Origin: Escherichia coli
Lineage (GTDB): Bacteria; Pseudomonadota; Gammaproteobacteria; Enterobacterales; Enterobacteriaceae
Strand: one strand, 5' to 3'
Assembly: GCF_001677475.2 (NCBI RefSeq)
Contig: NZ_CP015229.1
DNA: 64,000 nt
Of the stretch, positions 1 through 48,119 are shown in pieces (position 1 is the stretch's first letter; each line of letters starts with the position of its first letter). A program made the position numbers and the translations under genes. The notes beneath the pieces are model-generated. The model worked only from the letters and a program-made list of their open reading frames with translations, did no database searches and had not been told where the DNA came from.

Positions 1-15
1 AGAAAATATTGAAAA

Positions 16-2088
16 TTATTGTGTGTAAATGTCTCCCTTTAAAAAGTCTGGCCAGTTTTTTTCAAAGTAAATACCGTTAATACACGGTTGCATACGTAAA
101 GACTTTACTTCGGTAATAAAAGAACCTTGCGAATATTGAATTGTTAATTTGTGATTTTTATCTTCAGCGAGTTCAGAGCGAAAACGCCATTCTTCTTTTA
201 CGCCGCGACGAGTTTGTGGTAGGCATTTGCCTTGTGGATCAATAACCATCCGCGCCCCACGACTGCCGCCACCAGCATCAATATAATGCGTTAATTGTGT
301 TAATACCGCGGCAGAAGTCAGCGCCATATGCCGCCACATAAACAGCTCGGAAACTTCACCCACATGTTTGATTGCCAATCCATGCCGTTGGACAAATTCG
401 TTCAATAGCAGGGCATCGCGAGTGGCGCGTCGGACTTTATCGGCATGGCAAATAAATCCCGCATAGTCAGACATTCGTGCCTGAATTTTTTCTCTCACAA
501 CCGACAACGGCATCCCGGTCCCGTTATCGTGCGCCTGAGTAATGATCTCTCTTATAGAAGCCAGTGCCGGAGCTGCCAGCTGTGCTATATCTCCATCAAT
601 ATTCCGCTTTTGCGTGCAACCAATAAAACGTGCCAGACGCACGGCAAAAACCTGCCCGGCATTCAATGCCGCACCACCAGGGCGAGTGACGCCGTGTGTG
701 CCAGCAACTTCCCCCACTGCAAAACAACCGGGCAGAGATGTTTGTCCCCAGATATCCACTTCAATGCCGCCATTCATATGCTGATTATTCATGGCAAACT
801 GCAATGGCTGCGTGGTGAGATCGTAACCGTGCATCTTATACAGCGAGATAGACAGCGGATTCATTCGTTGCAGTCGTTCGATGGGCGATGGCGCCAGGGC
901 GTCGTTATTTTCCAGATACGCGCGAACGTCGTCGTCCAGTCGTTCTAATGAGAATGGCAGGTCACCCGGCACAGGTTCAGGATTGCGATTGAAATCCATA
1001 AATACCTGACGCCCTGATTGCTGCTCTTGCGCCACCGCCATATCTAACAAGCTGGAGCCAAAATCCATTACCCGCGTGGCGTGGAACGGCCACTGATAGC
1101 CTTTACGGAAGATGTTTGAAGCCAGCTCCTGGGTGGTGCGATAGTAATCTGCGAGGAAGTTATACTCGTTGCCCTCGGCATCCACGGAATAGATATATGG
1201 GATCACTTGTACATAGGTGCCGGACAAATTCCACGGAAACGTGCTGCGCGGCGTGCCTATACCAAACTGGCTTTCGGTCAGATTAGTTAGTGTCAGGCCT
1301 TCCTCCAGCGCCAGCCCCAGCGAGCCAAAACATTTGTGTGGGTACACACTGTCGCGATAAAGCTCGCCCGGCCCGCCTGTTGCCAGTACCACATTGGGCG
1401 CAGTCACAATTGCCAGCCCCCACGGGTTATGGGCGCGGGAACCGGTTGCGAGGATAGCCCCGGCCACACGATCTTCGCCGTTTTCACCGCGTTGATGCAG
1501 CAGTTTAATCACCGTTGCACTGGTCAACAGTGGGATGGCGAGGCGCTGCACTTCTTCGAGCAATACTTTCACCATCAGACGAGAAGTGCGCGGCCCACAG
1601 GAGGTTGCGCGTCCGGCTTCGTCATGGTCGGTCTGATAACGGAGAATTGCACCATAGCGATCTTCCGGTAATTCCAGACCGAGATATTGCAGCCCGCCAA
1701 GGGTATGTAGGGAACCGACCGCTTCGACATACGCCGTGTCGTGATCCATCGCACCGCCGCTCGCCAGTGCTTCAGCAAGTTTTGCGAAGTTATCGCCGTT
1801 GCCCGCCGTTGCGGCGGTAAACAGCGTCTGTTTATCGGAACCGGAGCAGGCCGATGTTCCCATGTATAACCCGGCGGTGGCGATTAGCACATTTTGCTGG
1901 CGACGTTTCAGTTCAACCGCCGCACGTAATCCTGCCGCGCCGCTACCAACGACCAGAGCATCTGTTTGCCAGAGCGGGTAATCAACACCGTCCACCGTGA
2001 CAATTGACGTTGGCTCTGCTGACACAAAACCCTTCGGGAAAGTGACGTGCGTCAGCGCATCGAGGATGGCGTCATCAGTCTGGCTCAT
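16..2088 (-). CDS. FAD-dependent oxidoreductase, fumarate reductase/succinate dehydrogenase flavoprotein-like (KstD/TcuA-type), 690 aa
   Basis: Full-length ORF; Rossmann motif VVGSGAAG about 45 aa from the N-terminus followed by a GTSACSGS motif; start overlaps the stop of the upstream CoA-transferase gene by 4 bp. Confidence 0.7.
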   Translation of the reverse strand: MSQTDDAILDALTHVTFPKGFVSAEPTSIVTVDGVDYPLWQTDALVVGSGAAGLRAAVELKRRQQNVLIATAGLYMGTSACSGSDKQTLFTAATAGNGDNFAKLAEALASGGAMDHDTAYVEAVGSLHTLGGLQYLGLELPEDRYGAILRYQTDHDEAGRATSCGPRTSRLMVKVLLEEVQRLAIPLLTSATVIKLLHQRGENGEDRVAGAILATGSRAHNPWGLAIVTAPNVVLATGGPGELYRDSVYPHKCFGSLGLALEEGLTLTNLTESQFGIGTPRSTFPWNLSGTYVQVIPYIYSVDAEGNEYNFLADYYRTTQELASNIFRKGYQWPFHATRVMDFGSSLLDMAVAQEQQSGRQVFMDFNRNPEPVPGDLPFSLERLDDDVRAYLENNDALAPSPIERLQRMNPLSISLYKMHGYDLTTQPLQFAMNNQHMNGGIEVDIWGQTSLPGCFAVGEVAGTHGVTRPGGAALNAGQVFAVRLARFIGCTQKRNIDGDIAQLAAPALASIREIITQAHDNGTGMPLSVVREKIQARMSDYAGFICHADKVRRATRDALLLNEFVQRHGLAIKHVGEVSELFMWRHMALTSAAVLTQLTHYIDAGGGSRGARMVIDPQGKCLPQTRRGVKEEWRFRSELAEDKNHKLTIQYSQGSFITEVKSLRMQPCINGIYFEKNWPDFLKGDIYTQ

Positions 2089-45582: not shown

Positions 45583-45631
45583 TACGTTATTCCTGCAAAT
45601 GCGAGGGGGCGCAATTGCGCCCCGAAGAAAA

Positions 45632-47053
45632 TTAAACAATGTCCAGCGTGCCCAGGCGGTATTTCCGCTGATAGATAAACGAGGTGAGTACAATCGGGAT
45701 GATGATGGCGATAGCCATTGCCAGCGCAAACACCTGCCAGTAGCTCGGTTGAATCGAGAGAATTCCCGGCAGGCCGCCTACGCCGATGCCATTCGCCATA
45801 ACGCCGTTCAGGCCGCAGAGCAATCCTGCCAGACCAGAACCAATCATCGCGCACAGCATCGGGAAGCGATATTTCAGGTTGATGCCGTACATTGCAGGCT
45901 CAGTGACCCCAAGCCAGGCGGAGATCGCCGCAGGCACGGAGATCTCGCGTTCATTGTGCTTGCGGCTGGAAATGATAATGCCTATCACGGCGGAGCCCTG
46001 AGCGATATTCGACAGCGCAATCAGCGGCCACACTGGCGTACCACCCATGCTTTGAATCATCTGCAAATCAATAGCAAGCGTGGTCTGGTGTACCCCGGTG
46101 ATCACCAGCGGGGCGTACAGGAAGCCAAACAATGCCGCGCCAATCGGAGCAAAGCTGCCGGTCATCAGGTGACGGACCGCAAAGGCAACCCCATCGCCAA
46201 TCATGCGCCCAAACGGACCAATCAGTGCATGGGCGAGGAACACCGCGAGGATCAGCGAACAGACGGGCACCACCACCAGATAGAGGTAATCCGGCACGAT
46301 GCGTTTAAGGCGAGTTTCAATAACGCCCAGCGCCAACCCGGCTAACAGTGCCGGGATCACCTGCGCCTGATAGCCCACTTTAGCGATGCTGAACATGCCA
46401 AAGTCCCACACTTCCGGCAGCTGCTGCCCGAGCAGATAAGCGTTCATCAGCTGTGGAGAAACCAGCGTTACGCCAAGCACGATACCAAGGATCGGCGTGC
46501 CGCCCATTTTTTTCACCGCGGACCAGCAAATCCCGACCGGCAGGTAGAAGAAGATCGCTTCACCGATCAACCACAGAAAATCGTAGATCGTTTGCAGGGA
46601 AGGGTACATTTGTGCCAGCGTTTGACCGTTGCTCATGGGCAAATCGCCGATCACATTGCGAAAACCGAGGATCAAACCGCCGCTAATCAACGCGGGCAGC
46701 AACGGGAAGAAGATCTCCGCGAAATGAGAGATCAACTGCTCATGCCATTTCATATTCTGCCGGGCGGCTTTTTTTACCTGCTCTTTATCAACCTGCGCCT
46801 GTCCGGTTGACGCTATCAGTGCTTGATAGTAATCACCCACGTTGGTGCCAATCACCACCTGAAATTGCCCGGCATTGGTGAAACAGCCTTTCACCATGGG
46901 GAGTTGCTCAATTTCTTTCGGTCTGGCATTGGCCGGTTGGTTGAGGACAAAGCGCAGACGAGTAATACAGTGGCTCACCGTCGCAATATTGCCGCGCCCG
47001 CCGACCAGTTCAATCAACCGATCGATATCCGTTTGGTTTATTTTGCTCATCAT
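45632..47053 (-). CDS. treB: PTS trehalose-specific EIIBC component
   Basis: 473-aa ORF with N-terminal EIIB cysteine motif and a membrane domain. Confidence 0.93.
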   Translation of the reverse strand: MMSKINQTDIDRLIELVGGRGNIATVSHCITRLRFVLNQPANARPKEIEQLPMVKGCFTNAGQFQVVIGTNVGDYYQALIASTGQAQVDKEQVKKAARQNMKWHEQLISHFAEIFFPLLPALISGGLILGFRNVIGDLPMSNGQTLAQMYPSLQTIYDFLWLIGEAIFFYLPVGICWSAVKKMGGTPILGIVLGVTLVSPQLMNAYLLGQQLPEVWDFGMFSIAKVGYQAQVIPALLAGLALGVIETRLKRIVPDYLYLVVVPVCSLILAVFLAHALIGPFGRMIGDGVAFAVRHLMTGSFAPIGAALFGFLYAPLVITGVHQTTLAIDLQMIQSMGGTPVWPLIALSNIAQGSAVIGIIISSRKHNEREISVPAAISAWLGVTEPAMYGINLKYRFPMLCAMIGSGLAGLLCGLNGVMANGIGVGGLPGILSIQPSYWQVFALAMAIAIIIPIVLTSFIYQRKYRLGTLDIV

Positions 47054-47118
47054 AAAGCCCCATGGCAGATGACATTTTTGGTTGGCTGCAGAATATATTG
47101 CGCTGAAAAATTTAAAAA

Positions 47119-47132
47119 CGGGAACGTTCCCG
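47119..47132. promoter_or_regulatory. Candidate TreR operator (palindrome CGGGAACGTTCCCG) in the treB promoter
   Basis: Perfect 14-bp LacI-family-type palindrome about 65 bp upstream of the treB start. Confidence 0.6.
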
Positions 47133-47171
47133 AAACGCAGCGAAGATCACAATTTATCGTTCAGGAAACGA

Positions 47172-48119
47172 TCAGGACAGGGTGGCGGGGATGATGATTT
47201 GTTGCGGTTCGCTGCGCCCGGTTACCTGCGCGATCAACTGGCAGGCCGCCTGGCGTCCAGCTTCGGCGTAACCGGGATCTACGGTGACGATCTCCGGATG
47301 GAGGAATTTCATTAACGGCGTATTACCGACGCTCGCTAGTTGCAAGGTGTCGATGCGTTGCTCTTGCAGGTATTTACTTGCACCAAGTGCCAGCGTGTCG
47401 GTTGCGCACAGTAAGGCGGTAGTTTCAGGCGTAATCACTTTTGCTACGTTCTCATAGCCTTGCTTCATAGCAAGGCCTGGCAGGGCGGCAACGGGATGCA
47501 GTTTATGCGCTTTGCAGAACGCCAGGTAGGCTTCGTGACGTCGCTTACCGGTCGTCACGTCACAGTGCGGCACGCCGAGATAACTGATATTACGATGCCC
47601 CTGGTCATACAGCCGTTGCATCAGGATCTTGATTGCCCCTTCGTCGTCATAACAGACCGAAGCAAAGCCTTTTGCGTCACGCGCCAGCAGAACCAGCGAT
47701 GACTGCCAGTGGGTTAACATTTCTTCTGTTATGCCAGTAAAACCGAACAGCACTACGCCGTCGATATTACGCCGTTTCAGCACCCCCAAATGTTCGGCAA
47801 CTAATTGCGGGGAAAACTGACTTTCCATCATGATTGGATCGTAACCTTGTTCATAGAACGCTGGCAGCATGGTTTGAACGGCGAGATTTTCTGACAACGA
47901 ATCCAGGCGGGTAACAATGATGGCGACCACTTTATCGCTTTGCCCACGCATAGCGCGTGCAGAGCGGGAAGGGGAAAATCCATGCTGATTCATCACTGCT
48001 TCAACACGCTCGCGGGTGCGCTGGCTCACGCCGCTTTCGTTATTCAGCACCCGGGAAACTGTAGATTTCCCCACGCCGCTTAAGCGCGCGATGTCTTTGA
48101 TGGTCAGCCGATTTTGCAT
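47172..48119 (-). CDS. treR: Trehalose operon repressor (LacI family)
   Basis: 315-aa ORF with N-terminal HTH. Confidence 0.93.
   Translation of the reverse strand: MQNRLTIKDIARLSGVGKSTVSRVLNNESGVSQRTRERVEAVMNQHGFSPSRSARAMRGQSDKVVAIIVTRLDSLSENLAVQTMLPAFYEQGYDPIMMESQFSPQLVAEHLGVLKRRNIDGVVLFGFTGITEEMLTHWQSSLVLLARDAKGFASVCYDDEGAIKILMQRLYDQGHRNISYLGVPHCDVTTGKRRHEAYLAFCKAHKLHPVAALPGLAMKQGYENVAKVITPETTALLCATDTLALGASKYLQEQRIDTLQLASVGNTPLMKFLHPEIVTVDPGYAEAGRQAACQLIAQVTGRSEPQQIIIPATLS

Follow-up and report, generated by a model that had tools for sequence, protein, structure and literature searches.

A perfect palindrome between treR and treB of Escherichia coli, very probably the TreR operator, and its conserved promoter context

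The treR-treB spacer

The window, i.e. the whole 64-kb stretch of Escherichia coli DNA that was analyzed, carries the gene order mgtA-treR-treB-treC, as in E. coli K-12. treR and treB both lie on the minus strand and are separated by a spacer of 118 bp (47054..47171), within which the 14-bp perfect palindrome CGGGAACGTTCCCG is located. A first-pass annotation of the sequence had reported the palindrome and the length of the spacer from the treR stop to the treB start, and both were exact. The features of the locus, in the direction of transcription of treB after the two genes, are as follows.

47172..48119, minus strand: treR, LacI-family trehalose operon repressor of 315 aa, annotated as treR in E. 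coli genomes
45632..47053, minus strand: treB, PTS trehalose EIIBC transporter of 473 aa, the regulated gene, likewise so annotated in E. coli genomes
47156..47172, minus strand: inverted repeat ATCGTT-N5-AACGAT that overlaps the treR stop, a lineage-specific hairpin
47133..47154, minus strand: putative CRP site in the 22-bp frame AATTGTGATCTTCGCTGCGTTT, with the left half TGTGATC at 47145..47151 and the degenerate right half CTGCG; it abuts the operator
47119..47132, palindromic, no strand assigned: very probable TreR operator, perfect palindrome with the central CG at 47125/47126 and the core GGGAACGTTCCC at 47120..47131
47113..47118, minus strand: weak -35-like hexamer TTTTTA, which begins directly after the palindrome, 17 bp upstream of the -10
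47090..47095, minus strand: -10 TATTCT (TAnnnT), a conserved hexamer 24 nt after the core
47082..47083, minus strand: predicted treB start (A/A), 7-8 nt after the -10 and placed by the -10 geometry

The identity of both gene products is well supported by NCBIfam equivalog models. TreR scored 591 bits against TIGR02405 (cut-off 357) and TreB 974 bits against NF008236 (cut-off 409); the effector domain of TreR is represented by PDB entry 4xxh. treR ends with a TGA stop codon at 47172..47174. An Rfam scan detected no RNA family within the treR-treB spacer. On the other side of treR, the Mg2+ leader of mgtA (RF01056, 125.8 bits) was found at 48289..48404 on the plus strand, upstream of mgtA (48498..51194), so that the treR-mgtA intergenic region is common to this leader and the oppositely directed treR promoter.

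The 14-mer CGGGAACGTTCCCG had a single match in the window when zero to two mismatches were allowed. Perfect palindromes of even length and 14 bp or more as such occurred four times in it, and 4.7 were expected according to first-order Markov simulations; the expected number per given 118-bp spacer was about 0.009. Palindromy by itself is unremarkable, and its significance rests on conservation across species. As the palindrome count was at chance level, the case had to be made by comparison with other genomes. The longest palindrome in the window was a different one, the 24-bp perfect palindrome AAGGCCGGAGCATGCTCCGGCCTT at 61811..61834, which is probably a terminator or a REP-like element.

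Comparison with E. coli K-12 MG1655 (K-12 coordinate = window coordinate + 4419127) showed that 145 of 146 bases across the spacer and its flanks were the same. The sole difference, at 47104, falls outside the palindrome, TGTGA, and the -10. Thus, the sequence and gene context are those of the characterized treBp region of K-12, with the whole CRP-operator-promoter block unchanged. Of 5426 complete E. coli genomes, 5008 carry the 48-bp block from TGTGA through the T-run with 100% identity.

Conservation of the palindrome and its linkage to treB

A genome scan with TreR yielded 80 Enterobacteriaceae loci with TreR proteins of 82-99% identity. From these loci, a footprint set of 75 independent members was formed in which treB follows treR within at most 400 bp; it covers more than 20 genera. 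As evident from the core-anchored alignment, the 12-bp core upstream of treB was invariant in 75/75 loci, with 2.0 bits at all 12 positions, and was embedded in an ungapped conserved block, ttaTTGTGATCnTCGCnnnnTTTC-GGGAACGTTCCC-aTTTT. Pairwise identity amounted to 89% for this block versus 37% for the segments between the conserved elements, where the information content was only about 0.4 bits at each position. Directly 3' of the core, 66 loci have A, eight have G, and one has T. Most loci (66/75) thus show the form CCCA, and the perfect 14-bp form of this window and of K-12 belongs to the minority. The four central bases, ACGT, never varied among the loci.

These data bear directly on the simplest alternative, namely that the palindrome arose by chance and has no function. 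Such a reading is in keeping with the chance frequency of palindromes of this length in the window. It is incompatible with a core that stays invariant at all 75 loci while its surroundings have diverged to near saturation, and with the retention of that core across orders of the Gammaproteobacteria. It is in effect refuted by the conservation data and has next to no probability.

The palindrome followed treB rather than treR. An insertion of about 1.8 kb behind treR at two loci (L036 and L047) has left the CRP-operator-promoter block directly upstream of treB. At four loci (L004, L005, L028, and L038), treB was missing downstream of treR, and the box was missing too. Further features of these loci were recorded. 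L036 is from Enterobacter chuandaensis and L047 from E. quasihormaechei; in the former, a remnant resembling the 3'-end of treR precedes the block. In the four loci lacking treB, among them Escherichia sp. E1V33 (L004) and E. whittamii (L005), treR is intact, and the repressor gene appears to have been kept after treBC was lost or relocated.

Two E. coli assemblies deserve separate mention. In that of strain HB101 (L094, NZ_CP184671.1, 2609380..2609711), an IS1A end lies directly upstream of CGTTTCGGGAACGTTCCCG; the CRP half-site and the end of treR are replaced, and the operator and the treB promoter remain. In strain Ecol_316 (L001, NZ_CP018957.1), treR is called a pseudogene with "missing N-terminus" by RefSeq. 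With 99.4% identity between this locus and the window, and with all 315 TreR residues aligned by tblastn, the pseudogene call is probably an issue of start codon or annotation.

A protein search for close homologues returned only close relatives; distant TreR proteins were reached with 50%-identity representatives. The distant TreR orthologues, 38-49% identical, were encoded in the order treR, PTS-EIIBC, and alpha-amylase-family gene. Upstream of the treB-like PTS gene, Orbus hercynius carries the box GGGAACGTTCCC, Salinivibrio the boxes TGGGAACGATTCCA and TGGGAACGTTACCA, and the metagenome lineages L085 and L090 the box TGGGAACGTTCCCA. In L092, two TGGGAACGTTACCA boxes were located upstream of the regulator. 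In L093, a paralogue-like regulator with 44% identity, encoded in a different context, was accompanied by a differing box, TGTAAACGTTTACA; the box therefore tracks the specificity of TreR. Two sequences were left out, L091 because it was too short and L084 because it represents a C-to-T converted assembly. The latter, a Logan contig from SRR18107613, contains a converted Klebsiella-like tre locus (TTTATGTGATTGTTGTTGGGTTTTGGGAATGTTTTTATTTT) in which gene calls are meaningless; it was probably assembled from bisulfite-type reads.

Linkage to treR and treB also speaks to the question whether the site is bound by, or shared with, a LacI-family regulator other than TreR. Half-sites are generally similar within this family, and a closely similar CelR-type box, TGGGAACGTTCCGC, is present upstream of Acel_0130 (PMC3377646). 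The CelR/CebR boxes of Actinobacteria, which belong to LacI-family regulators responding to cellobiose, are nearly the same type of 14-bp box, but regulator, effector, phylum, and targets all differ. The likeness is one of motif and not of system, and we ascribe it to the family-wide similarity of half-sites. Against another regulator stand the presence of the box together with treR-treB-treC synteny throughout the lineages examined, its loss upon loss of treB, the use of another box by the L093 regulator, and the fact that the adjacent gene encodes an equivalog-scoring TreR. Recognition by a different LacI-family protein is accordingly highly improbable.

A further alternative concerns RNA instead of DNA. 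The palindrome and the T-run behind it (CGGGAACGUUCCCG UUUUUAAAUUUUU on the sense strand) could form the intrinsic terminator of treR, either instead of the operator or besides it. Indeed, a terminator scan flagged the palindrome together with TTTTTAAATTTTT, comprising five pairs (four of them G-C), a loop of four, and the subsequent T-run. The two genes are transcribed in the same direction with just 118 bp between them, and behind treR no further conserved terminator was convincing. E. coli gains a fifth base pair through the G at 47119 and has a longer T-run than most genera. The hairpin is nevertheless weak, with -7.0 kcal/mol (z -0.87) in this window and -5.4 kcal/mol and a 4-bp stem in the CCCA form of 66/75 loci. 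The bases of the would-be loop, ACGT, are invariant and compensatory changes are absent, pointing to protein-DNA recognition. Moreover, the box occurs without any T-run in the distant lineages L088, L090, and L092, and it goes with treB wherever treR and treB are separated. The palindrome thus does not combine a stable G+C stem, a U-run, and constraint on the stem in the way of a rho-independent terminator. We consider termination of treR at this site very unlikely; in E. coli it would be at most a minor role added to that of an operator.

The pattern opposite to that of the invariant loop was seen in the spacer between treB and treC (45583..45631, minus strand). It harbors an 18-bp perfect palindrome, GGGGCGCAATTGCGCCCC, at 45606..45623, which reads GGGGCGC-N4-GCGCCCC in the mRNA, i.e. 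a 7-bp G+C stem with a tetraloop and no U-run after it. The exact stem was present in 63 of 81 sequences, combined with 14 loop forms, which looks like a signature of RNA-structure constraint. The hairpin may serve as an intercistronic stabilizer, a processing barrier, or a partial attenuator.

For the inverted repeat at 47156..47172, a conserved role as terminator of treR or as a second operator was considered and rejected. It was found in Escherichia, Citrobacter, Leclercia, Silvania, and Kluyvera, but not generally. Its hairpin has -5.0 kcal/mol (z -1.1) in this window; z averaged -0.19 across the 75 loci and fell below -1.5 in only eight of them.

The probable CRP site and the predicted geometry of the treB promoter

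Upstream of the operator, TGTGATC was present in 75/75 loci at a fixed offset of 20 nt from the core. The first-pass annotation had noticed this half-site on the reverse strand near 47141..47150 and had called it weaker than the palindrome. The motif is indeed present on the minus strand, at 47145..47151, one base off that range. The CRP consensus is AAATGTGATCTAGATCACATTT. With respect to it, the half-site is part of a weak site: AATTGTGATCTTCGCTGCGTTT agrees at 14/22 positions, its left half fitting TGTGA-N6-TCACA perfectly and its right half, CTGCG, at one of five. With respect to constraint, the description as weaker did not hold, as invariance in 75/75 loci is as strict as that of the operator.

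In distant lineages the same arrangement recurs with better right halves. TGTGA is found at the same 20-nt offset in Orbus (TGTGATATTGATCTCA, right half TCTCA) and in Salinivibrio (TGTGATGGTTTTCAAA, right half TCAAA), with 4/5 matches each. In L085, a good CRP site, TGTGATCAATGTCTCA, lies exactly 21 bp, i.e. two helical turns, further upstream. Because of the invariance, the fixed spacing, and the same-offset sites in Orbus and Salinivibrio, the TGTGATC frame is accepted as the probable CRP site on sequence grounds. It begins 17 nt after the treR stop, which bears out the earlier remark that promoter and operator sit directly against the end of treR. The tetranucleotide TCGC at 47139..47142 (relative positions -12..-9) was kept in 66-72 of the 75 Enterobacteriaceae loci. 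It lies in the 6-bp spacer and the first right-half position of the CRP site, and the CRP consensus does not include such a requirement.

Downstream of the operator, the T residues at relative positions 13..16 were conserved in 75, 75, 72, and 70 of the 75 loci, respectively. The -10 pattern TAnnnT stands out from a diverged stretch; at relative positions 36, 37, and 41, T was found in 72/75, A in 75/75, and the final T in 75/75 loci. An alternative -10 register, TATATT at 47092..47097, exists in E. coli only. Relative position 49, which belongs to the predicted start, was a purine in 73/75 loci. Relative to this predicted start, the center of the CRP site is at -60.5/-61.5, and that of the operator is at -42.5/-43.5, so that the operator spans about -50 to -37. 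Class I promoters have CRP centered near -61.5, or farther upstream by one or two helical turns.

A promoter scan of the spacer revealed no consensus sigma-70 promoter, as expected for an activator-dependent promoter. treB was absent from the start-site supplement of one public TSS study. In the open full-text literature, neither the mapped operator nor the transcription start of treB was found in print.

Probable identity of the operator and proposed control of treBC

Operators of LacI-family regulators are even palindromes with a central CG, lie mostly 30-140 bp before the start codon, and have the regulator gene nearby (PMC4052901). The palindrome described here is even and has a central CG; its center precedes the treB ATG by 72 bp; the cognate regulator gene, treR, is adjacent; and the core is outlined by a phylogenetic footprint. 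All three kinds of evidence for a LacI/GalR-family operator, i.e. structure, upstream placement, and footprint, are thus present. Together with the identity to K-12, the conservation in 75/75 loci, and the recurrence in distant lineages, these operator features support the proposal of the first-pass annotation, and we conclude that the palindrome is very probably the TreR operator at the treB (treBC) promoter.

In E. coli, the treBC promoter is already known to have a TreR operator and a CRP site. For K-12, binding of TreR and induction by trehalose-6-phosphate are established, and derepression of treB upon deletion of treR has been reported. Horlacher and Boos, in work of 1997, reportedly located the TreR operator by DNase I footprinting at a palindrome directly adjacent to the -35 of treB. 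The position found here against the -35 matches the footprint so reported.

treBp of K-12 has the same genes in the same order and at the same spacing, and the DNA of its spacer departs from that of the window at a single position not belonging to the site; nothing substantive differs. RegulonDB is reported to list two TreR sites for treBC (PMC3505978), one of which is recognizable here. Only one convincing TreR site was visible; the next-best sequence in the tre region, at 47163..47176 over the treR stop, agreed with the core at 8/12 positions. Matches of this quality are at background level, with 159 in the window. A second TreR operator was therefore rejected, as the best candidates, with only 8/12, were no better than background.

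Based on the arrangement of the elements, repression may be pictured as follows. The TreR dimer, encoded immediately upstream, would bind the two GGGAAC half-sites that flank the central CG. In a weak promoter that depends on CRP, the operator would lie exactly between the -35 and the CRP site near -61, and bound TreR would fill the DNA needed by the C-terminal domain of the RNA polymerase alpha subunit and by sigma region 4. With TreR in this alphaCTD/sigma slot, CRP-dependent activation and polymerase binding would both be blocked on steric grounds. Trehalose-6-phosphate, the known inducer, frees TreR from the DNA, and cAMP-CRP could then activate transcription.

We also considered an extension of this scheme beyond classical occlusion. 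TreR on its operator would stand in the path of transcription reading through from treR and, as a roadblock, would insulate treBC from treR transcription; in E. coli the roadblock might be aided by the weak 5-bp hairpin and the U-run. At treBp itself, TreR would act as an anti-activator, repressing mainly by filling the alphaCTD slot between CRP (-61) and the -35 and not by simple occlusion. This reading is speculative, and we regard it as unlikely.

Several known systems offer points of comparison. Typical motifs of LacI/GalR operators such as lacO, the purR boxes, and cre are 16-22 bp long, whereas the strictly conserved part comprises 12 bp here, and the TreR half-site is GGGAAC. The outer pair of the TreR operator is C/G in E. 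coli and T/A in distant lineages, and in most Enterobacteriaceae C is combined with A. With its putative CRP half-site near -61 of the predicted start, its weak -35, and a LacI-family repressor in the alphaCTD slot, the treB promoter would resemble class I CRP promoters that have a repressor between CRP and the -35, with lac as the model for CRP geometry and CytR-CRP for anti-activation. As differences, treB has a single CRP site and gives no sign of protein contact between TreR and CRP. lac O1 is located at +11, whereas the TreR operator is at -43 relative to the predicted start.

Beyond a correct annotation of this stretch, the finding matters little, as it concerns the already characterized region that controls the trehalose PTS operon of E. 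coli. What is added is a comparative footprint consisting of the 12-bp TreR core, the CRP half-site at its fixed 20-nt offset, and the -10 register. The CRP-TreR-promoter module fits into 118 bp and was kept from Enterobacteriaceae to Vibrionaceae and Orbaceae. The footprint could aid the use of TreR and its operator as a compact part that responds to trehalose-6-phosphate.
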